Below are positions 3,302 through 61,113 of a stretch of 64,000 nucleotides of DNA, one piece after another. Under the pieces are notes generated by a model that did not search any database, was not told where the DNA came from, and worked only from the letters and a program-made list of their open reading frames with translations. The stretch's first letter is position 1; every line of letters begins with the position of its first letter. The translations under genes and the position numbers were made by a program. Origin of the DNA: a virus. Its lineage: Duplodnaviria > Caudoviricetes. The stretch is taken from IMG/VR virus record IMGVR_UViG_3300042483_000388. One strand, given 5' to 3'.

Positions 3302-6288
3302 TGGCAATAAATAAATTTACTTGTCCACCACAGAGTAGTGCAGCAAATCAGTTCTCTAACAACTTAGTTGGGGTACAACTTGTTGCTGGTGGTGGTTTAA
3401 CTCAGGCAAATTTTAATTTTACCACCGGAATAAGTGAAAAACAGAATAGAACTTTTACTATTGGGGCGTTTTCTGAACCAATTAATTTGGAATCAATTAA
3501 TATTGATACAATTGCCGAATCAAGAGAAATAATTGCCAAAAACTATAGGATTTACCCTAATTATGACTTATCTCAGGTAACGAACTTTACTCAATATGGT
3601 TCTTTAGTTAAAAGATTTTCAGTATCAATAGCGAAGATTATTAATTTTTTTCCGGCTGGTTTAGAAGTTTCGCCACAAACAGCGACTTTTTCAACACAAG
3701 AAACAGCACATAATATTTCATATAACCAAACAGAAAATGAGACCTACTTAGAGGTTAGTATTTCATCAATTAGAAACCCATTTGATATTGATTACACTGA
3801 AAGTGCGACAAGAAACTTTTTATTAAGAGAAAATGAGGTTTCCGTATTGAGAAATATGACGGAAAACTATAAGAAGTATGTCATATATTTAAATGGAATA
3901 GAGTATCCTATAAATTACTTATACCCAACAACAAGTACCTCAACAGAATTAAGGTTGATTGTTGATGGTAATCCTTTCGAGGGTAATCAAATAACTTACG
4001 ATTATTTAGTTATTAGACCTAACAATTATGAAGTAAATAAGGTGTTTAACATGGATTTTACACCTGTTGAGAACTTCTTACTTAACAGACAAATTACGCC
4101 GGCTTACACATCAACCTTTAAAGTGCCAATTCAAAATGAAGATGGGACATATACCATCACTAGTACGTTTGCCACTTTCCCTAAGAGTGGTATTTGGAAT
4201 TTGGACATTACGTCAGTTAGTTTTGATAACTATTTGATAAAGATCAATAACTTCGCAATAAATTTAGATACCTACAATACAAATATAATCTCAAGATTTT
4301 TAACAACAGGAGCCTTAAAAGAGTTTGACACTCCAGATCAAAAATATGAGAAATTGTTGCAAATATATGGTAGAAGTTTTGATGAGACAAGACAATTTAT
4401 TACCGCATTAGGAAACATGAATAGTGTTCATTATACAATTAAAAATGATATACCATCACAATTACTTAAAAATTTAGCTCAAACATTAGGGTGGACTACA
4501 AACTTTTCACCAATTTCAAACGAAGAATTATTACAAGCGGTCTTTACACACCAACCAAACACATTTGCCGGATTACAAATAGGTCAAACACCAGAAGAAT
4601 TAAATTATCAATTCTATAGAAACCTAATATTAAATTCCGCTTGGTTATTTAAGTCTAAAGGAACAAGAAAATCTATTGAGTGTTTATTAAGGATGGTTGG
4701 TGCGCCTGAGGCGTTAATTGATTTTAACGAGTATATTTATGTTGCCGACCAAAGAATTAATATGGGTGAGTTCCAACAACAATTTTTCCAAATAACGGGA
4801 GGAACTTACCAACAACAATTTTCGGTTTATGAAACTAGTAACGTATTTTCAATACATGGAGTACAATATACTGGATTTACAACAACTACATCAAACGAAA
4901 ATGTAACAACAATACGAAATGATTATCCTGTTGATGATTTTGGTTGTCCACAAATGCCAATCCCATCAGAAACGTATTTTTATCAAATTGGTGGTGGTTG
5001 GTTTGAATCAACACCAGAACATAGAATGCCGGCAGCATTCATACCAACCAATTTAACATTTACCGGAAACAACCCAAATTTTCAAACAACACTTTTACCA
5101 TTTAATTATGGTCTGGAGTATCTACAACGATATGAACAATTTCCGTTTATGGATTTAGGTTTCAAATTAAGAAGTGTTATTGATAATAAAAAAAGTTGGG
5201 TTAATAATGAACCAACATTAAGAAAAAGTTTTGATGGTGGATTTAATGCGTATTATTCTGTTGGAGAAGAATGTTTAACAATTAATGTAAAAAATGTTGA
5301 TGTGTTTATGAACCCATCACAAGGTCTTGTTTATGATGTTTGGACAATGTCAAGACAATATAATTACCCAATTCCGGAACAAGGACTATTCTACTCACCA
5401 CCATCACCTTGTAATATACCAAACCCATACCCAAAAATTGGTGGAATAGATTGGACAGTTATTATACCAAAACCAAAACAAAAAACATTCTTTGAGTTTG
5501 CTCAAACTTTTTGGCATAATATGATAAATGTTAGAAATCGTCAATACATTACGGATGGTAAAACTGGAGGGTATCCAACACTACAATCTATTTATTGGAA
5601 GTATTTGGAGTCAGGACAAACTATAGGAATTCCTAACGATAATTTTACATATCAAACGATGATTGATTATGTAAATGGTATGGGGGATTATTGGGTTAGA
5701 TTAGTGGAACAAATGATACCGGCAACCACAATTTGGAATACTGGTGTCAGACTTGAAAACTCAATATTCCATAGACAAAAATTCGTATGGAGAAGACAAG
5801 TTGGGTGTCAAATTATACCGGTTCCTTGCAAACCTTGTTCTCTTACCACACAACTATATGTTTATGATTGTCCAATACAACAGGTAACTTGTCCACTATA
5901 TCCTTGGAATAGTGATCCACAATCAACCTCATTTGGTGTTGTATTGAATAGTACTCTAGATAACTTCTATAGTGTTAATGGTTTAAATGCTTCTGTTTGT
6001 CAACCATCATCAGTTGTTACCACATGGTATGTGGATATAAGATTGAATGGTGTTCCATTGACACAATACCCTTTCTTTAATGGTATTGGTAATTTATCCG
6101 CACCAACAGATACTCAGTGGGTGGTAGCGTTAGAAGATGTGTTAGATAGTTTACTCACATTAGGATATAGTTATAATATAGATACGGACAATGATTTGGT
6201 TCAGGTATATAGTAATAATTGTCAACCAAACTCTGACGACTTTCAAATAAACGTAGGAATTTCCTTTGAATTATATTGTAATAACTAA
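3301..6288 (+). CDS. Baseplate wedge-like protein, 995 aa
   Basis: Segment LLKNLAQTLGW...LFKSKGTRKSIECLLRMVG resembles P2 gpI / T4 gp7-type wedge motifs; operon context. Confidence 0.55.
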   Translation: MAINKFTCPPQSSAANQFSNNLVGVQLVAGGGLTQANFNFTTGISEKQNRTFTIGAFSEPINLESINIDTIAESREIIAKNYRIYPNYDLSQVTNFTQYGSLVKRFSVSIAKIINFFPAGLEVSPQTATFSTQETAHNISYNQTENETYLEVSISSIRNPFDIDYTESATRNFLLRENEVSVLRNMTENYKKYVIYLNGIEYPINYLYPTTSTSTELRLIVDGNPFEGNQITYDYLVIRPNNYEVNKVFNMDFTPVENFLLNRQITPAYTSTFKVPIQNEDGTYTITSTFATFPKSGIWNLDITSVSFDNYLIKINNFAINLDTYNTNIISRFLTTGALKEFDTPDQKYEKLLQIYGRSFDETRQFITALGNMNSVHYTIKNDIPSQLLKNLAQTLGWTTNFSPISNEELLQAVFTHQPNTFAGLQIGQTPEELNYQFYRNLILNSAWLFKSKGTRKSIECLLRMVGAPEALIDFNEYIYVADQRINMGEFQQQFFQITGGTYQQQFSVYETSNVFSIHGVQYTGFTTTTSNENVTTIRNDYPVDDFGCPQMPIPSETYFYQIGGGWFESTPEHRMPAAFIPTNLTFTGNNPNFQTTLLPFNYGLEYLQRYEQFPFMDLGFKLRSVIDNKKSWVNNEPTLRKSFDGGFNAYYSVGEECLTINVKNVDVFMNPSQGLVYDVWTMSRQYNYPIPEQGLFYSPPSPCNIPNPYPKIGGIDWTVIIPKPKQKTFFEFAQTFWHNMINVRNRQYITDGKTGGYPTLQSIYWKYLESGQTIGIPNDNFTYQTMIDYVNGMGDYWVRLVEQMIPATTIWNTGVRLENSIFHRQKFVWRRQVGCQIIPVPCKPCSLTTQLYVYDCPIQQVTCPLYPWNSDPQSTSFGVVLNSTLDNFYSVNGLNASVCQPSSVVTTWYVDIRLNGVPLTQYPFFNGIGNLSAPTDTQWVVALEDVLDSLLTLGYSYNIDTDNDLVQVYSNNCQPNSDDFQINVGISFELYCNN

Positions 6289-8468
6289 TGGGATATATTA
6301 ATGTATATGGTTATAATGTAACCGGTGATTGTGAAAACATAGGTGTTGGTTCAGTAAGTTTTTTAATAAATGGAGATACACCACCTTTTGGGGTTACATG
6401 TGTTGGATCTGGTTGTACGTTACCAACATCGGCATCAACAACATCTTATAGTGCGGAGAACTTAACGGGAGGAACATATTTTTTACAAATAATAGATGGG
6501 TCATCCACATCAAGATTACAAACGGTTTATATTTCAACAGGGACTACCGCAACAATTGACTCATCAAATACTACCTGTGGATTTAATAATGGTACCGTAA
6601 CTGGATTCACTTCTGGAGTTTATGGTAATGCAACATTTGATCTCTACGATATTTTAAATAATGTAGTGTCTAGTGGTTCAACACCAAACTCTTATTTTGA
6701 ATTTACAAATTTATCTGCCGGAACATACTATATAGTCGCTAATGATGGTGGTGGGTGTACGGGAATTACGGCATCTGTTATTATCAACCCATCAACACCG
6801 TTTAATTTCGGTTATTATGTTGTTGATGATGCGGGATGTGCGTCATCAAGTGGTAAAATATTTATTACTGGTTTAACGCCTAGTTCGGCATATACATATA
6901 GTTGGTCATCTAATGTTGGGTCACAAACAGGGGATACAATGACAGGTTTAACCGCTGGTACCTATACGGTAACAATCACAAACCCTATTGATTGTGAGTC
7001 GTCAAGTGCGATAACAGTAACACAAGTACAGGCCGTTGGTAGTGCTGGATTTATTGTAACACCACCAAGTTGTTTCCAAAATGATGGTGTAGTTATTGCA
7101 ATTCTAACTGGAGGTACCGGACCATACTATTATAGTGGGTCAACAGGTGAAGTGGGAATATCTTTTGATACATCATTTACCTTTAGTGGTGTACCTACAG
7201 GCGTGTTTAATGTTTATGTTATGGATGCTGGTCTTTGTACTTATAGTGCTTCTGTTACTTTAAACACTCCAGGATCATTTAATTCTGTAAATGCTATAAC
7301 AACAAATTCCACCTGTTCTACAAACGACGGGACACTCCAAATTATTGTTGATAACGGAGCAACATCAGCCGTTAATTTACAAATACAAATATCTGGATCA
7401 ACAGGAATTATTCAAACGGGAACTGTTGGTAATGCAAATCAAACATTCTACGGATTACCAAATGGGACTTATATTTATGCCGTATCTTCAGTTGGGTGTA
7501 TATATACAGGAACTACAAGTATAATTTCGGTTAATAAATATACTGTTACAGCAACAACCGTTGGTACCACATGTGGATTTAATAATGGATCTTTAGAGGT
7601 TACAGTATCAACTGGTGGCACTTTACCATATAACTTTACGTTAACAGGGCCAACATACAATCCATCAACAACTAGTGGACCTATAGGTATATTTAATAAC
7701 CTGTTATATGGTAATTATACTTTAACCGTACAAGATTCTGGAATTCCGGCGTGTATACAAACTTACCCAATTTATATCAATTATAGTCAAAATATGTATT
7801 TTGATTTGAACCCTATTAATCCTGTGAATGGTAATGATGGTCAAATATCGACCACAATATATTCGGGAGTCCCTCCATTCACATTAAGTTGGAGTGGAAA
7901 TGTTATTGGTCAGACAGGATCAACAATAACTGGACTAACAAGTGGTACTTACGATTTAACAATAACTGATAGTAGTGGTTGTACACTAACAAAATCGGTT
8001 ACATTATTAGGAACCAAATTATATAGTGATTATATGTTCCATACAATATGTGAGGACATGTTTAAACCAAACGGATCTATTGGTGTAAGGAACATTAGGT
8101 CTATGTATTTGGAAGGTTTTGGAGACCTTACTAGTGGTGATACAAATTGTATTATAAATTCCGCAACATTCTCAATTTATACGGACGTTGATGGTGACAT
8201 TAAAATACAACCATTTTATGTGTCAACAGGAGCCACTGACTATCCAAATGATATTGTTTGGTCAGATAGTATTGTTGCAGCATTAGAAGAATATGTTGGT
8301 ATTACAGATGTTACGGTAGATTTAATATCAAATAGAATTACCTTAACATCTGGATGTGAAAAAATAACTAAGGATTGTATTTTACAACCATTCAATCCAC
8401 TACAAGATACCGAAATAACGGTTAAATTGGTTATTGATTATGAAATATCTTGTGTAACTTGTATATAA
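6288..8468 (+). CDS. Tail fibre/adhesin-like protein with SprB-type beta-sandwich repeats
   Basis: Repeated FTNLSAGTYYIVANDGGGC, GLTAGTYTVTITNPIDC and GLTSGTYDLTITDSSGC motifs. Confidence 0.6.
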   Translation: MGYINVYGYNVTGDCENIGVGSVSFLINGDTPPFGVTCVGSGCTLPTSASTTSYSAENLTGGTYFLQIIDGSSTSRLQTVYISTGTTATIDSSNTTCGFNNGTVTGFTSGVYGNATFDLYDILNNVVSSGSTPNSYFEFTNLSAGTYYIVANDGGGCTGITASVIINPSTPFNFGYYVVDDAGCASSSGKIFITGLTPSSAYTYSWSSNVGSQTGDTMTGLTAGTYTVTITNPIDCESSSAITVTQVQAVGSAGFIVTPPSCFQNDGVVIAILTGGTGPYYYSGSTGEVGISFDTSFTFSGVPTGVFNVYVMDAGLCTYSASVTLNTPGSFNSVNAITTNSTCSTNDGTLQIIVDNGATSAVNLQIQISGSTGIIQTGTVGNANQTFYGLPNGTYIYAVSSVGCIYTGTTSIISVNKYTVTATTVGTTCGFNNGSLEVTVSTGGTLPYNFTLTGPTYNPSTTSGPIGIFNNLLYGNYTLTVQDSGIPACIQTYPIYINYSQNMYFDLNPINPVNGNDGQISTTIYSGVPPFTLSWSGNVIGQTGSTITGLTSGTYDLTITDSSGCTLTKSVTLLGTKLYSDYMFHTICEDMFKPNGSIGVRNIRSMYLEGFGDLTSGDTNCIINSATFSIYTDVDGDIKIQPFYVSTGATDYPNDIVWSDSIVAALEEYVGITDVTVDLISNRITLTSGCEKITKDCILQPFNPLQDTEITVKLVIDYEISCVTCI

Positions 8469-44537: not shown

Positions 44538-44570
44538 AAAAAACCCCTCCGTTAAGAGGGGGTATTTTTT
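44538..44570. terminator. Bidirectional intrinsic terminator
   Basis: A-run, CCCCTC-cgttaa-GAGGGG, T-run, between convergent genes. Confidence 0.85.
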
Positions 44571-51988: not shown

Positions 51989-52261
51989 ATGACAAAGGCA
52001 GTATTCAATATTAAAGTTATGAACGAAAAGTTTGGAACATTGCTTTCCGAAACTTTTGTTGATGGGACTCAATTTAAAATTTTCTTAATGATGATTGATG
52101 GGGCTTTAAACTTAAAAGAAGATTTGTCTTATTTTGATGGTAACACATTCTTGGTTCATATACCTCACAAGATTTTAAAAGAATCTGTGATTGTAACTGG
52201 AACAGAAGAGATATCGTTGGTGGAGCAAGTTAGAAATAGAATTGAAACTTTAGTAGGATAA
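51989..52261 (+). CDS. Hypothetical protein
   Basis: Downstream of TATATTTG at 51965. Confidence 0.65.
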   Translation: MTKAVFNIKVMNEKFGTLLSETFVDGTQFKIFLMMIDGALNLKEDLSYFDGNTFLVHIPHKILKESVIVTGTEEISLVEQVRNRIETLVG

Positions 52262-53863: not shown

Positions 53864-54079
53864 ATGAGCAAAATTAAAATAACGCAAAGACAAATGATAA
53901 GGATCCAAAAGTTTCTTAATGAGAGCATTATTATGGAGCAAACCTCAGACGAGATTATCAATATTCAAAACAGGTTAAACTCATGTTTTAATGCTGGATT
54001 AAAAGCTGATGGTAAAATGGGACCAAAAACCGCATCGGCTATTGAAACATATACTGGTTATGATGTTTCTGTTTCATAA
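53864..54079 (+). CDS. Duplicated cassette copy 1, 71-aa protein with a peptidoglycan-binding (PG_binding_1-like) motif
   Basis: IQNRLN..GLKADGKMGPKTASAI. Confidence 0.65.
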   Translation: MSKIKITQRQMIRIQKFLNESIIMEQTSDEIINIQNRLNSCFNAGLKADGKMGPKTASAIETYTGYDVSVS

Positions 54080-54096
54080 GTTTAAAAAAAAATAAT

Positions 54097-54121
54097 AAGG
54101 GAGATCAATCTCCCTTTTTTT
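54097..54121 (+). terminator. Intrinsic terminator, copy 1
   Basis: AAGGGAGAT-ca-ATCTCCCTT followed by a T run; identical to 55538. Confidence 0.85.
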
Positions 54122-54209
54122 ATGCGGTTTTTTTTGTGATATGGAAAAATACTACTATATTATTATTCTTTTTTGGTTTATCATATATTTATATAATAAA
54201 AATTATAAT

Positions 54210-55286
54210 ATGAAAAATAAATTATTTTTAGAGGAAGGGGAAATTTCAAGAATTCTTAATATGCATAAAAGGGCAATCCGAGAAGAACTTAATGTTAATG
54301 GTGATGAAGTTGAGAACAATCAAGTTCAAATGGATGAGGAATTAAGTGAAGATGGTCAAGTACAAAAAACCTTGGCCGGAGCAGCTATTGGATCCGCAGC
54401 AGGTTCTTTTATTCCTGGTGTTGGTACTGTTGCCGGAGCAATAATTGGAGGATCCATAGGTTATTTTGGTAGTTTGATGAATAGTTATAGTTTAGAGGGG
54501 GCTAAAAAAATATTACAAGCTTGTTCGGCTAAAAAAGCTGAAATGGGAGAACCAACAATGAATTCAGCGACTTTAGCTAAGATTGCTGACGATATTAACT
54601 ACGGTGTTGAAGGTAGTGGAACATATGAAAAGACTATTGCCTCAGGTTTGAGACAGACCAAATATATGCCCAATCTATGTGCTATGGCGGCAGTTTATAA
54701 ACAGAGACAAGGTGAAAGTTTATTTGATGCGATTGATGGGGACATAGATTCTGATTATCAATGGAAAACGTATGTGTTTTTGCCTTTATTAGATGTTTAT
54801 AATAATAGTGTGGAATTGGGTAAAAAAATGTTAAAACAACAACCACAACAACAAAAAACTGGAGGAGGAGGAGCACCAACATCAGGTGAGGTGTACCAAA
54901 AGTGTCACACAGCAATAATTGACCCTATGGTTAAAAAATATGGATATACTTACGTAACTTTAGATGTGTTTAATCAAGCTCCGGCCGATAAGAAAACATA
55001 TAAATGGTGTCCTGCAGGGAAGAGTAACGTATACTTCACTAAAGGATGGAGTGGTGGTAGTACTGAAACTGCACCTACTGGTACTGAAACTCGTGTTTAT
55101 AGTGGCGGAGGTGGAGGAGGTGGAAAAACATACACCTTTGATGTTGCAGCAGTAAATAAATTAATAGATGAAAAATGTTCTAAGGATGGAAAACCTGGAG
55201 GAACAGGTGTTAATCTTGATGCTACTGGCACACCAACACCAACACCAATACCTAATATGCCAAAAGACGTATTTGACATCACATAA
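54210..55286 (+). CDS. Duplicated cassette copy 2, large ORF with a glycine zipper and an annexin-like repeat
   Basis: GAAIGSAAGSFIPGVGTVAGAIIGG; GVEGSGTYEKTI...YKQRQGESLFDAIDGDI. Confidence 0.7.
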   Translation: MKNKLFLEEGEISRILNMHKRAIREELNVNGDEVENNQVQMDEELSEDGQVQKTLAGAAIGSAAGSFIPGVGTVAGAIIGGSIGYFGSLMNSYSLEGAKKILQACSAKKAEMGEPTMNSATLAKIADDINYGVEGSGTYEKTIASGLRQTKYMPNLCAMAAVYKQRQGESLFDAIDGDIDSDYQWKTYVFLPLLDVYNNSVELGKKMLKQQPQQQKTGGGGAPTSGEVYQKCHTAIIDPMVKKYGYTYVTLDVFNQAPADKKTYKWCPAGKSNVYFTKGWSGGSTETAPTGTETRVYSGGGGGGGKTYTFDVAAVNKLIDEKCSKDGKPGGTGVNLDATGTPTPTPIPNMPKDVFDIT

Positions 55287-55305: not shown

Positions 55306-55521
55306 ATGAGCAAAATTAAAATAACGCAAAGACAAATGATAAGGATCCAAAAGTTCCTTAATGAAAGTATTATTATGGAACAAACCTCAGATGAGATTAC
55401 CAATATCCAAAACAGGTTAAATACTTGTTTTAATGCTGGATTAAAAGCTGATGGTAAAATGGGACCAAAAACCGCATCGGCTATTGAAACATATACTGGT
55501 TATGATGTTTCTGTTTCATAA
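55306..55521 (+). CDS. Duplicated cassette copy 2, 71-aa PG-binding-like protein
   Basis: 69/71 aa identical to 53864..54079. Confidence 0.7.
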   Translation: MSKIKITQRQMIRIQKFLNESIIMEQTSDEITNIQNRLNTCFNAGLKADGKMGPKTASAIETYTGYDVSVS

Positions 55522-55537
55522 GTTTAAAAAAAATAAT

Positions 55538-55562
55538 AAGGGAGATCAATCTCCCTTTTTTT
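55538..55562 (+). terminator. Intrinsic terminator, copy 2
   Basis: Identical to 54097-54121. Confidence 0.85.
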
Positions 55563-55590
55563 ATGCGGTTTTTTTTCTTATATTTGTGAT

Positions 55591-56663: not shown

Positions 56664-57914
56664 ATGAGAAATATTGTTATAACTGAAAATCAATTAAGGA
56701 TAATTACGGAAGCTTTAGGGGTTCCTGATAACATTTTGGATGCTGCCGATATGTTATATGACATTGTTGAAAGAGACATCAAATCAATAAGAGACATTCA
56801 AGATGTGTATAACTTTGATGGTGAAATAGAATTTGAATTAGGTGATAAGAAAAAAATCAAAATTGATTCATATACTCTTACAGTAAAAATTGAGGAGATT
56901 GATGATGAAGAAGGGGTCTTAGATATTATCTCAATGGGAATGGAAGGTGCTTTTGGATTTAATAGGGATGTTTATATGAAAGAAAACGAACCCTCAACAA
57001 TTTTGGGATTAACAATAACATTTGCTGTTGGTGAAAATTGGAAACCTGAAGGACTTATTCAAAAAATGGAAGAAGAAAGAGACGAACATGTCGCATCTTT
57101 AGCTCATGAAATAAAACACAAATACGATAAACAATCAAAACAATTTGGTTTAATTGGTCAAGACGCCGAATATCAAGCAACACAAAGAAGAGGTAGTTTT
57201 GGAATACCGGTAATTGATAGAGTTTTTTTTAGATACTTATATTATATTTCCGGTATTGAAAATCTTGTAAGACCAACTGAAGTGGCTTACAAGTTAAAAA
57301 GAAAAAATATTACAAAGTCACAATTCAAAGAATTTTTAGAAAATAATGTAGTTTATAAAGAACTCGTTGAAATTAAAAACTTCACATTTGAAGACTTCAT
57401 CAATCAATTAAAAGAAAGTGAAGATAGGTTAGACGTTATTATTGACCACATTGGTGAAGACCCATCCAACATGACAATAGATGAAAAAATTAATAGAGTA
57501 TTAGAAGTTGCTTATATTGATTTAGTTAATAATAGAATGCAAATGTTTATGACAATGACGGAACATGGAATGGATGATGTTATAAAATTTGGAACTCAAC
57601 TTGGTATTTTACCTCCAGGGTTAGAAGGAAATTTGGAGGGAATTCAAAAGACAGATGCGATTAGACAAAAGTTTTTGAAATATGTTATGAAATACGAAAA
57701 AAACCCAACCAAATTTTTTGAAGATGAAATTGAAAACTTTCAATATGTCGCAAATAAAATGATAAAGAAAATATCAAAACTCTATGCTATGGCAAAAGAT
57801 GATGAACAAGTTAGTGAATCAATTATCAATTGGGAACTTCATCAACAAATTATGGAGAAAAAATACGGTAAAAGAAAAATAGAAACAAAATACAAAAATT
57901 GGAATCTTAAATAA
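56664..57914 (+). CDS. MRNIVITE-type protein with an HExxH zincin-like motif
   Basis: ITENQLRIITEA start; SLAHEIKH; E in RPTEV; TATTTAT 4 nt upstream. Confidence 0.6.
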   Translation: MRNIVITENQLRIITEALGVPDNILDAADMLYDIVERDIKSIRDIQDVYNFDGEIEFELGDKKKIKIDSYTLTVKIEEIDDEEGVLDIISMGMEGAFGFNRDVYMKENEPSTILGLTITFAVGENWKPEGLIQKMEEERDEHVASLAHEIKHKYDKQSKQFGLIGQDAEYQATQRRGSFGIPVIDRVFFRYLYYISGIENLVRPTEVAYKLKRKNITKSQFKEFLENNVVYKELVEIKNFTFEDFINQLKESEDRLDVIIDHIGEDPSNMTIDEKINRVLEVAYIDLVNNRMQMFMTMTEHGMDDVIKFGTQLGILPPGLEGNLEGIQKTDAIRQKFLKYVMKYEKNPTKFFEDEIENFQYVANKMIKKISKLYAMAKDDEQVSESIINWELHQQIMEKKYGKRKIETKYKNWNLK

Positions 57915-58073
57915 TAATCTAAAGTCATAGTTTGCTCAATACATGGATTTATTAACCACTAATCTCAATTGTATTCGTATTTATTAGTGAGCTCAACCTG
58001 CCCGTGGAATATGGGGGTTTCCTAAAAAGATTCTTCAAGAGAGTAAATAATTTTAATTTTATTTATTTTTACT

Positions 58074-60815
58074 ATGAAGAATATATTGCTTGGACTTTTT
58101 GTCCTGTTTTCTACTTTCACATTTTCACAATCATGTCTCCACACTATTCGACGAACTGATACCTTTGGTGATGGTTGGAATGGAGGAACTGTAGCTGTTT
58201 CCGTTAATGGAGTAACTGTTTTATCCGGATTATCTTGTGTTGGAGCCGGTCCTACTTCTTCAACATTTAGTGCTGCAGTAGGATCAACAATTAGAGTGTA
58301 CCGAACAGCTGCCGGACTTTACCCTACAGAAATGCGTATACAAGTTCTCAGTGGTGCTGGTGCCATTATACTCAATACTGTTCAACCACTTGCTGGATCT
58401 GCAATTTCAGGAGGGTGGACAGTATTAGGAAGTTGTGCGGCAGCAGGACCTTGTACCAATACCTCATCATATGGTTCAGCTACTGCTCCATCTACACCAA
58501 CAACAGTAGTTATTAGTACATGTCAATTTCAGTCAGAGTACAGTACAATTTATTCTTGCATAGCAGGTCGAACATATCAATCGGCTTACAATTTAGGGGG
58601 ATTCATAACGGTTAGATCGGGAACATACAATGGTGCTGTAGTTGCTAGTGGAAACAGCCCACTAAATTGGGTGTGCCCAACCTCAGGAACATATTTTGTC
58701 CATTATAATACAAATAATACTTGTGGGACAGCATCTTCTTGTGGGACATCTTCTATTTCTTGTTTAACTTGTTTGGCGCCAACTGCCCCACCAAATGATT
58801 TAGTGTGTAATTCAACATCTATTACTTGTGGTCAAACACTATCAGGAACTACTATAGATGCAACCAACACTGGAACGGGTGAAGGTGGATTTTGTTCTGT
58901 AAGTCAAACACAACCCGGTGTTTGGTATGTTATTCCAGGAAACGGACAAATTATGACGGCAAATCTTTGTGCGACGGCATGGGATAGTAAAATGTCTGTA
59001 TTTAGTGGCCCTAATTGCTCTACATTGTCATGTGTTGGAGGAAATGATGATTTTGGGCCCGCTTGTGCTAGTTCGTCCGCCTCATTTTCATGGTCATCGG
59101 TAGTTGGAACAAATTACTATATATTAGTTCATGGGTATAGTGCAAGTAGTACTTTTTCTATTAACCTAACTTGTATGTCTCCCCCACCACCAAATCCTAC
59201 ATCAATATCTGCAACACAAAATACTATTTGTAATGGATCATCTACCACCCTAACCGCAAATGGTGCTGTGGGTGTGGTTTATTGGTATGTAGGAGGTTGT
59301 GCTTCCACTTTCGTATCAACCGGAAATTCCATTTCGGTAAGTCCTGCATCAACCACCACATACTACGCAAGAAATCTAAACGGAGGTCTTTTTAGTGGTG
59401 GGTGTGCTTCAACAACAATAACGGTTAATCCCAATCCCAATGTAACCATAAGTTCGGTAACCAATACAATATGTGATGGATCAAACACCCAATTAATATC
59501 TAACATTAGTGGTGTGTCATCCCCAGGAAATCTTGTTGTGACCATATCCAGTGGTGGATTCTTAGATGAAAGTTCTTGGACTTTAACAAATAGTTTAGGT
59601 GCTGTAATTGGTTCAGGTGGACCTTATGGTTTAGGGTCAACAAATATAATTCCAATCGGTTCATCGGCAAATGGTCCATACACACTTAATGTGGAAACTC
59701 AAGGAATATGGAATGACAACACGGCAAATTATTTGGTAACTTGTAACGGAACAACGGTCCTAAGTGGAAGTTTAGTTGGTGGGCAGAGCATAACACAATC
59801 AATCTCATCTTGTGGGTCTTCTCCTGGTGTAACATATCTATGGACACCTTCAAACGGACTTACAAATGCAAGTGCCCCAAGTCCATTTGCTTCTCCTACG
59901 ACTACACAGACCTATCAGTTAACCGTAACTGCAAATGGGTGTTCAGTATCAACCTCCACAACAATAACCGTAAATCCTTCTGTTGGTTTTGTGTCTACAA
60001 TATCTGGTAATAATACCATAATTGCCGGAACACAAGGAAGTTATTCAATAACACCGGTAGCAAACTCAAATTATCAATGGGCATACACCGAGTCCGTAAC
60101 TGTGCCACTATGGATAAACGTTCCGAACTCTAACTCACCATCAATAACATTTACTTGGCCACAGACAACAACTAATGGTTCGGCTAGAGTTATTATCAGT
60201 AATGCTTATGGGTGTGGAACTCAAACCAGATTTTTTAATATTGTTACTAATGGTGCTCTTCCTGTTGAACTATTAAGTTTTGTTGGGGTTTGTGATAACA
60301 ATTTAATATCATTAACTTGGAAAACGGCAAGTGAACATAATTCTGATTATTTTGAAGTTCTTAAATCAAGAGATGGTTTAAATTGGTCAATATTAACCAC
60401 TTTAAATTCGGCTGGTAATTCAACCCAAGAATTAACTTATACCACAAAAGATGAAAACGCCATTGACGGGGATAACTATTATAAACTTCTTCAATATGAT
60501 ATTGATGGACAATCAAAAGAGTATGGGCCAATAAATGTAATGTGTAATGAAAACAAAAAAGGTTACTTTTCAATATTTCCTAATCCAAGTTCAGGATCTT
60601 TCCAAGTTGTGTTAAACAATAAAAATATGGTTGGTGATGGAAAATTAATTATTAAAGACACAAAAGGATCTGAAATACTTAATAAAGAAATTAATATTGT
60701 TTCAGGGATTAATTTATATAATATTGGAGATTTAAATATGGTGGATGGAATTTATTATGTTCAGGTAAGTAACGGAAATTTTTCAACACAAGTAATAAAA
60801 CAAATAATAAAATAA
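58074..60815 (+). CDS. Secreted multi-Ig/Cys-rich protein with a T9SS (Por) C-terminal sorting domain
   Basis: Signal peptide MKNILLGLFVLFSTFTFS-Q; PPNDLVCN motif; LPVELLSF...TWKTASEHNSDYF; FSIFPNPSSG...GIYYVQV...KQIIK. Confidence 0.85.
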   Translation: MKNILLGLFVLFSTFTFSQSCLHTIRRTDTFGDGWNGGTVAVSVNGVTVLSGLSCVGAGPTSSTFSAAVGSTIRVYRTAAGLYPTEMRIQVLSGAGAIILNTVQPLAGSAISGGWTVLGSCAAAGPCTNTSSYGSATAPSTPTTVVISTCQFQSEYSTIYSCIAGRTYQSAYNLGGFITVRSGTYNGAVVASGNSPLNWVCPTSGTYFVHYNTNNTCGTASSCGTSSISCLTCLAPTAPPNDLVCNSTSITCGQTLSGTTIDATNTGTGEGGFCSVSQTQPGVWYVIPGNGQIMTANLCATAWDSKMSVFSGPNCSTLSCVGGNDDFGPACASSSASFSWSSVVGTNYYILVHGYSASSTFSINLTCMSPPPPNPTSISATQNTICNGSSTTLTANGAVGVVYWYVGGCASTFVSTGNSISVSPASTTTYYARNLNGGLFSGGCASTTITVNPNPNVTISSVTNTICDGSNTQLISNISGVSSPGNLVVTISSGGFLDESSWTLTNSLGAVIGSGGPYGLGSTNIIPIGSSANGPYTLNVETQGIWNDNTANYLVTCNGTTVLSGSLVGGQSITQSISSCGSSPGVTYLWTPSNGLTNASAPSPFASPTTTQTYQLTVTANGCSVSTSTTITVNPSVGFVSTISGNNTIIAGTQGSYSITPVANSNYQWAYTESVTVPLWINVPNSNSPSITFTWPQTTTNGSARVIISNAYGCGTQTRFFNIVTNGALPVELLSFVGVCDNNLISLTWKTASEHNSDYFEVLKSRDGLNWSILTTLNSAGNSTQELTYTTKDENAIDGDNYYKLLQYDIDGQSKEYGPINVMCNENKKGYFSIFPNPSSGSFQVVLNNKNMVGDGKLIIKDTKGSEILNKEINIVSGINLYNIGDLNMVDGIYYVQVSNGNFSTQVIKQIIK

Positions 60816-60860
60816 GAAAATATCTTTATAATATTAAATTAAAGTCATAAAAAGAATATA

Positions 60861-60890
60861 AAGCCCCCAAATAAAAAGTGGGGGTTTTTT
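60861..60890 (+). terminator. Intrinsic terminator
   Basis: AAGCCCC...GGGGTT followed by a T run. Confidence 0.7.
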
Positions 60891-60924
60891 GTTTTTATTA
60901 GAAAAACTTTATTATCTTTGTATT

Positions 60925-61113
60925 GTGAAAAAACCATGCAAAGAATGTCCCCACGTTATTAAGAATCGTCATAATGATATGATTGTTGAATTTGGTCGTA
61001 GGACCGGCAAACAACATAATTGTCATATGACAGAGGGTGTAAAAGATTTGTGGAATGTTACAGATAAAAAATTAGAATGTTATGGATCAAAGGAGATATC
61101 AAATGGAAAGTAA
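60925..61113 (+). CDS. Small Cys/His metal-binding protein (GTG start, probably leaderless)
   Basis: KKPCKECPH...HNCH; GTG 4 nt after TATCTTTG. Confidence 0.6.
   Translation: MKKPCKECPHVIKNRHNDMIVEFGRRTGKQHNCHMTEGVKDLWNVTDKKLECYGSKEISNGK

Follow-up and report, generated by a model that had tools for sequence, protein, structure and literature searches.

Architecture of the locus and of the encoded protein

The 64,000-nt stretch analysed here (IMG/VR record IMGVR_UViG_3300042483_000388, Caudoviricetes; hereafter the window, at its full length) carries at positions 58074-60815 an intact open reading frame (ORF) of 913 codons. A preliminary description made from the letters alone had proposed it to be a phage-encoded substrate of the host type IX secretion system (T9SS). 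All features below lie on the plus strand of the window unless stated otherwise. The 913-aa product was as described there: a predicted signal peptide, a long series of β-sandwich domains and a putative T9SS C-terminal sorting domain (CTD). Upstream of the ORF lie a promoter-like TATTTAT motif and a structured leader of 52 nt, and downstream an intrinsic terminator.

The Sec/signal peptidase I signal peptide covers residues 1-18 (58074-58127). The N-terminus reads MKNILLGLFVLFSTFTFS|QSC, with a predicted cut before Gln19 that would leave this Gln exposed. The cleavage site was assigned by eye; S18, Q19 and C21 are invariant in the 18 relatives compared, and a bacterial homologue (L036, see below) has AYA|QC at the same position. 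Such a site fits the Bacteroidetes Q-rule, under which signal peptidase I exposes a Gln that is then cyclised (PMC5837995), and the Gln at +1 reported earlier is thereby borne out.

The mature protein is predicted to start with a binding module of three Cys-containing β-sandwich domains (58131-59189), namely D1 (residues 20-125, with the motif TDTxGDGWNGG), D2 (126-237) and D3 (238-372, NDxxC...GGNDD). Residues 20-375 were modelled with AlphaFold2 using 39 phage and bacterial sequences; the model showed the three sandwiches with a predicted local distance difference test (pLDDT) score of 88.4. Foldseek searches with this module against the PDB returned ColG collagen-binding domains, CUB domains and the clostridial HA70, while a search of the AlphaFold DB returned the 'T9SS-like galactose binding domain' and PPC domains; no enzyme or catalytic fold was found among these structure matches. 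The module is followed by a CHU_C-associated Ig-like domain (Ig_7) and a second Ig-like domain (together residues 373-478, 59190-59507). The Ig_7 match (PF19081, residues 373-453) reached 36.1 bits, over its Pfam cut-off, in agreement with the Ig-like repeats noted before.

Residues 479-573 (59508-59792) form an optional insert domain that is missing from the relatives of ~818 aa. A natural variant that skips it, lacking ~321-327 nt (59503/59509 to 59831, residues ~479-586), was recovered from independent lake DNA runs and from a single metatranscriptome library. D1 and the insert domain showed no significant similarity to each other. Two further domains (residues 574-728, 59793-60257), Ig-like by sequence pattern only, correspond to a conserved block in the relatives. 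The 'LPVELLSF' domain named in the preliminary description (residues 729-830, 60258-60563) could be assigned as FN3-like from AlphaFold2 and from matches to FN3 tandems; the model of residues 729-913 (pLDDT 87.6) comprises this domain and then a seven-stranded sandwich. The LPVELLSF domain regularly precedes a CTD in proteins of Flavobacteriales metagenome-assembled genomes (MAGs) and is also found in the huge phages LR756500-504. With PHROGs only a weak match to the 913-aa protein was obtained. As modelled, the passenger consists of CUB/PPC-like and Ig/FN3-like binding modules in series, with no enzyme domain, and is a predicted adhesin.

The C-terminal domain as a putative sorting signal

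The assignment of residues 831-913 (60564-60812) as a type A T9SS CTD was based on TIGR04183, on a family profile and on sequence motifs. The TIGR04183 match covers residues 834-910 and the whole model (1-72 of 72) at the extreme C-terminus, and the same model is matched by 17 of the 18 relatives, with a best E-value of 1.7e-8. A profile made from residues 720-913 and the relatives matched T9SS CTDs of solved structure (8glk_D, E = 2.8e-10; 8glj_D, E = 2.9e-6), as well as the CTDs of GH167, a lipase, an ice-binding protein and mirolase (8qb1). In the alignment P117-N118-P119 are nearly invariant and G173 and Y175 invariant, corresponding to the PNP and GxY motifs, and the protein ends in ...KQIIK. 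Moreover, the tandem of an FN3-like domain and a CTD terminates many Flavobacteriales MAG proteins. At the family level these sequence comparisons argue strongly for a type A CTD, in spite of the narrow miss of the curated score by the window protein itself that is weighed below.

Elsewhere in the window, an ORF of 726 aa (6288-8468) gave weak repeated matches to the CTD profile (E = 3.5e-5, five stretches), which probably reflect Ig-like repeats and not a sorting domain.

Residence in a phage genome

The gene is a genuine, long-resident phage gene and not a host chimera. In ~25 of the 35 IMG/VR loci that encode a relative, it is kept behind a homologue of the 416-aa gene at 56664-57914 and before homologues of the genes at 61082, 62526 and 63066. 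The neighbours in the window match phage families (DNA methyltransferase phrog_67, PNK-like ATPase phrog_2071, phosphoesterase phrog_547 and SbcC-like phrog_77), so the phage flanks described earlier hold. The stretch is present in 20 lake-water metagenome runs, and counting only runs that cannot be the source of the window, both junctions of the gene are bridged by contigs (57698-58414, 57750-58793, 59599-60985, the last without mismatch, and 60435-61070). The comparison with related phages that had been suggested as a check thus showed conserved synteny, and no chimeric join was found in the independent assemblies.

The content of guanine and cytosine (GC) is 0.41 at 58-60 kb and ~0.31 around it. 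We considered this anomaly as a sign of recent transfer and rejected it, since GC at third codon positions (GC3) is phage-like, at 0.209 for the gene against 0.238 ± 0.046 for the other genes of the window. The excess sits in codon positions 1 and 2 (0.466) and is driven by the amino acids.

A blastn search of 50,697 phage records gave no close relative. A syntenic relative (G001, 291,867 bp, 99% complete) encodes a T4-type Gp23 capsid protein (E = 3.6e-64). Gene and leader are also present in a 166-kb record with direct terminal repeats (G004) that has its own Gp23 capsid gene (E = 1.6e-74) and shares none of the neighbouring genes of the window. The phage is assigned to a freshwater, T4-like lineage of ~290 kb that presumably infects Bacteroidota, with a host that is probably a member of the Flavobacteriales.

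Some relatives have a small gene for a double-psi β-barrel protein (DPBB_1; L149:7416-7787 and L153:7429-7836) after the 416-aa gene and ahead of the leader; this gene is missing from the window.

Relatives, origin and selection

In a scan that took one genome for each prokaryote species, 175 stretches encoding relatives were found, nearly all of them in Bacteroidota MAGs and many from Flavobacteriales (Crocinitomicaceae, Fluviicola, Lishizhenia); ~500 relatives were found among metagenome proteins. None of 78 bacterial loci has the window's neighbouring genes around the homologue, and two of the 78 carry one or two unrelated window-like genes. The closest bacterial homologue is L036, a protein of 1200 aa from a Flavobacteriia MAG of Lake Pavin, with 63% identity over 483 aa; its neighbours are chromosomal (RecJ, MlaD, Fe-S/CCG genes and a CTD-bearing subtilase). 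A 1041-aa protein (L039) has the same overall architecture, with a Por_Secre_tail match of 46 bits, and D1 is contained in a 2636-aa fn3/GBD_T9SS_assoc/CHU_C protein of the cultured Flavobacterium chungnamense (L109).

When the N-terminal module was used for a tree, the sequences from phages and metagenomes grouped in one clade inside the Bacteroidota homologues; L036 falls inside this clade at weak support. Since the Bacteroidota homologues are T9SS surface proteins, the gene derives from the host, yet has long been resident in the phage. Pairwise ratios of nonsynonymous to synonymous divergence (dN/dS) between phage copies were 0.07-0.31 whichever domain was taken, the signal peptide and the CTD among them, and dS reached 1.3 between distant copies. 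Compared with one relative (L001), dS differs along the gene, with 0.7 in D1-D2 but 0.15 in the C-terminal half, a mosaic that suggests recombination. The gene varies between related phages, with length classes of ~622, ~765, ~818, ~913 and ~1345 aa. Its most conserved part, under purifying selection, is the 480-residue N-terminal binding module.

The gene is shared by jumbo phages of T4-like type, a phage of 166 kb and a probable huge phage of 520 kb. The latter is a 519,707-bp ENA contig (L151) with the leader and a copy 82% identical to the 812-aa phage form (P0006); it also encodes SmpB, a phage peptidase (phrog_4191, 8e-76) and a collagen-like tail fibre. An assignment of this 519.7-kb contig, which carries P0014, as bacterial (SmpB, Fapy glycosylase) was rejected because of its strong phage-family neighbours and the phage leader, and we regard it as probably a huge phage. 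The presence of gene and leader on it indicates that the cassette moves between very different phage lineages.

Promoter-like motif, leader and terminator

The preliminary description had pointed to a TATTTAT upstream of the gene. This motif exists, at 58060-58066, 8 nt before the ATG, and is found only in the close relatives of the window; the copy kept in most related loci is another one, at 57978-57984, 7 nt upstream of the leader. TATTTAT is 4.2-fold enriched upstream of the genes of the window (12 of 68 upstream regions). A sigma-70 scan gave results at chance level, and no TATTTAT was found upstream of the capsid gene of G001. A TATTTAT(A) is seen before the genes at 44569, 45314, 46787, 56664 and 58074, and a Bacteroidota-type -7 promoter motif TAnnTTTG (here TATATTTG) instead lies 5-20 nt before the starts at 51989, 55591, 62335 and 63615; the two gene sets may represent two promoter classes.

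The leader (57992-58043) was found by aligning the 170 nt upstream of 16 relatives, chosen via the protein, and was described with a hairpin model. It is organised as CTCRACCKGCCCRTGG-loop-ATGGGGGTTTC-loop-GATTCTTCAAGNGAG and ends ~30 nt before the ATG; it is probably a 5' untranslated region, and is far more conserved than the coding sequence. In 22 distinct sequences, found via the protein and not via the motif, 39 columns are invariant; in later scans the search pattern itself prescribed columns 24-34 and 43-52, so that their invariance is independent only for these first 22. Over 67 distinct sequences, 98.6% of cells are paired under the hairpin model; with the partners slid, the figure is at most 58.5%. 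One pair is compensatory (CG 30, UA 22, UG 4, unpaired or other 11), three pairs are found as either G-U or A-U, and both the sequence and the length of the loops are variable. We also considered that the leader could be an upstream ORF (ATG GAA GAT GGG GGT TTC ... TGA); this was rejected on account of 1-nt indels, non-synonymous changes and the loss of the stop codon in the window. If transcription starts just after the conserved TATTTAT, the hairpin would be 5'-terminal, which is the position of classical mRNA stabilisers.

The leader appears to be specific to phages. It accompanies copies of the gene that are not syntenic with the window (L006, L007, L015 and L022) as well as the copy on the 519.7-kb contig, and occurs once per searched phage record, two of these records being complete. 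It was not found in 401 genomes of the order of L036 (Flavobacteriales), nor with a covariance model in the 78 bacterial homologue loci, and is missing upstream of L036 itself. No Rfam match was obtained for it (best E-value 2.2, far below the gathering scores).

Downstream of the gene, a GC hairpin followed by a U-run at 60860-60897 (folding energy -20.5 kcal/mol, z = -4.16) forms the gene's own intrinsic terminator, as noted before. An automatic terminator scan had missed it because of its loop of 9 nt. As to transcripts, a freshwater metatranscriptome (X24) contains 6% of the words of the stretch, in contigs that represent relatives of 90-95%; no RNA library was found to cover the whole stretch.

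An imperfect 20-nt direct repeat, 85% identical between its copies at 57910-57929 and 60830-60849, lies directly after the stop codons of the upstream gene and of the T9SS-cargo gene. Its core TAAAGTCATA occurs exactly twice in the window; with one mismatch allowed, this 10-mer is not enriched (8 found, 11.8 expected). The repeat may mark the boundaries of the cassette, or may have arisen by chance in AT-rich DNA.

Other genes behind the leader

Scans with the leader pattern gave 36 stretches in IMG/VR and 89 in metagenomes, some contigs being in both collections; in all, the leader-bearing contigs number more than 100. The leader heads the family of the 913-aa protein in 64 of the 81 informative metagenome stretches, and in all informative IMG/VR stretches except L130 and L144. 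The remaining genes encode other signal-peptide proteins, including different passengers on the same Ig/FN3/CTD tail (L185, L211, L216 and L169). Leader-headed mini-proteins of 110-191 aa also occur, in which nothing but a short linker separates the signal peptide from a type A CTD: L172:134-499 (+), L178:10714-11043 (+), L207:139-498 (-) and L208:4168-4740 (-). TIGR04183 scores were 25.7 bits for the first, and 28.5 and 50.2 bits for those of L207 and L208. It is possible that these mini-proteins are decoys or partners of the T9SS.

Being shared by such varied genes, the leader marks a set of phage secreted cargo genes, mostly of T9SS type. It is not universal among T9SS cargo. A second and unrelated type A cargo of G001 (G001:C1:287643-287882, minus strand, equivalent to L013:23-262; a 661-aa frame with a TIGR04183 score of 53 bits) lies ~10 kb from the G001 copy of the gene, and the sole leader copy of that genome is elsewhere. 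A broader proposal is that the leader is a phage-specific cis-regulatory RNA, with its 5'-terminal hairpin followed by the invariant single-stranded GAUUCUUCAAG. Together with an MKN-type signal peptide it would form a portable 'secretion cassette head', swapped among large Bacteroidota phages in front of many T9SS cargo genes, from 1350-aa adhesins to 110-aa proteins of signal peptide and CTD that could plug the T9SS. This would amount to a dedicated programme for the takeover of type IX secretion during infection; we offer it tentatively, at somewhat worse than even odds.

Proposed export and role of the protein

Taken together, we interpret the locus as a phage-resident adhesin cassette, made up of TATTTAT, the 52-nt structured leader, the ORF and the terminator, whose product is exported via the host T9SS, and we give this reading a probability of about 80%. 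The corresponding proposal of the preliminary description is supported in silico by synteny, bridged junctions, codon usage, selection, CTD homology and the Bacteroidota homologues. By analogy with characterised type A cargo, the cassette would be transcribed by the phage during infection and the pre-protein would cross the inner membrane by the Sec pathway. Signal peptidase I would cut before Gln19, which would be cyclised to pyroglutamate, and the Cys-containing β-sandwich domains would fold in the periplasm. The host T9SS translocon would then recognise the C-terminal domain, and after its removal the protein would be anchored on, or released from, the cell surface. There, most likely, it would alter what the infected surface binds or exposes, by adhesion, aggregation or receptor masking against further phage. 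T9SS cargo makes up the surface coat, the adhesins and the gliding machinery of Bacteroidota, and some of it serves as phage receptors. The abundance, conservation and spread of the gene suggest that large freshwater phages commonly use the host T9SS to remodel the surface of the infected cell.

Several observations weigh against this interpretation. The sorting domain had been called 'textbook', which slightly overstates the case for the window protein itself, strong as the family-level evidence is. The TIGR04183 search proposed at that stage gave a full-length match that missed the cut-off by 0.3 bit (22.7 against 23 bits), and PF18962 (Por_Secre_tail) scored 20.8 against a cut-off of 27. 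About one third of the relatives have a tail of ~40 residues in place of the full CTD that is recognised by no T9SS model, so that not every member of the family would be fully targeted to the T9SS. This short tail ends the 622- and 765-aa classes (...NLLGQEINENATGIIIEIYEDGSIKKIIK), with variants terminating in ...GIIIEIYEDGSIKKIIK, and a similar C-terminal shortening is seen in L036. Virion proteins, too, often contain Ig-like and FN3 domains. The Bacteroidota host is deduced from the homologues and the Q-rule, and the contigs of X24, the only ones from an RNA library, could be DNA carry-over.

Among the other explanations, the most probable is interference. Here the CTD-bearing product would occupy the T9SS or PorV and block the export of receptor adhesins and gliding, which would lead to superinfection exclusion and prevent progeny from becoming stuck on debris. 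In keeping with this idea, Flavobacterium mutants in gliding or in the T9SS are resistant to many phages. The same leader precedes the 110-191-aa proteins of signal peptide, linker and CTD, with TIGR04183 scores of 25.7-50.2 bits, which lends the idea some indirect colour short of proof. The conserved 480-residue binding module under purifying selection would, however, be unexpected if the CTD alone mattered, and because this module is the best conserved part we favour surface remodelling by the adhesin. Interference seems to us unlikely as the principal role, though worth serious consideration. The roles listed in the preliminary description (receptor masking, aggregation, competition for the T9SS and an adhesin for progeny) are all proposals of this kind.

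Export by Sec without the T9SS, in which case the C-terminal domain would be a plain β-sandwich and the protein periplasmic or freed on lysis, would account for the sub-threshold TIGR04183 and PF18962 scores and for the short-tail variants. It does not readily explain the full-length model match at the extreme C-terminus, the relatives and leader-mates that exceed the cut-off by scoring up to 50 bits, the match of the family profile to CTDs solved as separate chains (8glk_D and 8glj_D) or the homology to bacterial FN3 and CTD tandems, and we regard it as improbable.

The protein might also be a virion fibre or decoration protein that binds host or particle surfaces, the signal peptide and CTD being relics of capture. 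Ig-like and FN3-like domains are reportedly frequent on phage particles (Fraser et al. 2006), Foldseek also returned FN3 domains of the lambda and T5 tail fibres, and many relatives lack the full CTD. Against this, purifying selection has kept both the signal peptide, with its invariant S18-Q19, and the CTD; the gene comes with a terminator and a leader of its own and is surrounded by nucleotide-metabolism rather than structural genes; and the same leader heads mini-proteins of signal peptide and CTD that cannot be virion fibres. A virion Ig-like protein would be expected in a structural module and without an export signal, and the 913-aa protein does not correspond to this; such a role is likewise improbable. 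Finally, the joining of bacterial DNA to a phage contig by misassembly or host contamination, to which the raised GC and the homologues in Bacteroidota MAGs might have pointed, can for practical purposes be dismissed in view of the phage-like GC3, the synteny in ~25 viral contigs, the independently bridged junctions and the 0 of 78 bacterial loci with the window's neighbouring genes.

Comparison with known systems

Phage-encoded T9SS cargo is already known as a kind, by functional inference only, and the idea itself is not new. The 'Cryophage' encodes T9SS cargo (an endoglucanase, a GH39 protein and a PA14 protein) that varies between variants (Bellas et al. 2020, PMC7468147), and crAss-like cluster 2 phages carry ORFs with T9SS sorting domains (de Jonge et al. 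2019, PMC6949934). The present gene resembles these in its type A sorting domain, its variation between close phages and the presumed use of the host T9SS. The passengers differ, being endoglucanase, GH39, PA14 or BACON repeats in those phages and a CUB/PPC-like and Ig/FN3 adhesin with no enzyme here, and the present gene has a phage-specific 52-nt leader and is spread among unrelated large phages. What is new is this phage-only leader, standing before the gene and before other secreted cargo, and also the adhesin passenger, the wide distribution and the spread between unrelated large phages. The leader moreover provides an experimental handle, as it defines a phage gene set that includes the CTD-only mini-proteins.

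The Bacteroidota T9SS surface proteins of L036, L039 and L109 share with the phage protein the D1-D3 module, Ig_7, the FN3-like domain and a CTD. They differ in their chromosomal context, the lack of the 52-nt leader, and their lengths and domain numbers, and L109 uses a type B (CHU_C) signal, unlike the type A signal of the phage protein. The cassette recalls phage morons and lysogenic-conversion cassettes in being a self-contained, mobile unit with a terminator and a promoter-like motif between unrelated genes; unlike these, it resides in T4-like and huge phages that are large and apparently lytic, and different cargo genes have its conserved structured leader in common. In phages of Porphyromonas gingivalis, secreted proteins obey the Q-rule (Matrishin et al. 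2023, PMC10367356; Bochtler et al. 2018, PMC5837995). As in the present protein, the cut of their signal peptide exposes a Gln, pointing to adaptation to Bacteroidota export, but PMC10367356 mentions no T9SS CTD, and the phages and hosts differ.

Additional intergenic element

A near-identical intergenic element of ~65 nt (GTTTCATAAGTTTAAAAAAAATAATAAGGGAGATCAATCTCCCTTTTTTTATGCGGTTTTTTTT, with a terminator-like hairpin) was observed twice in the window, at ~54061-54140 and ~55511-55590. Its copies lie upstream of the genes starting at 54141 and 55591 and thus bracket the gene at 54141-55286.

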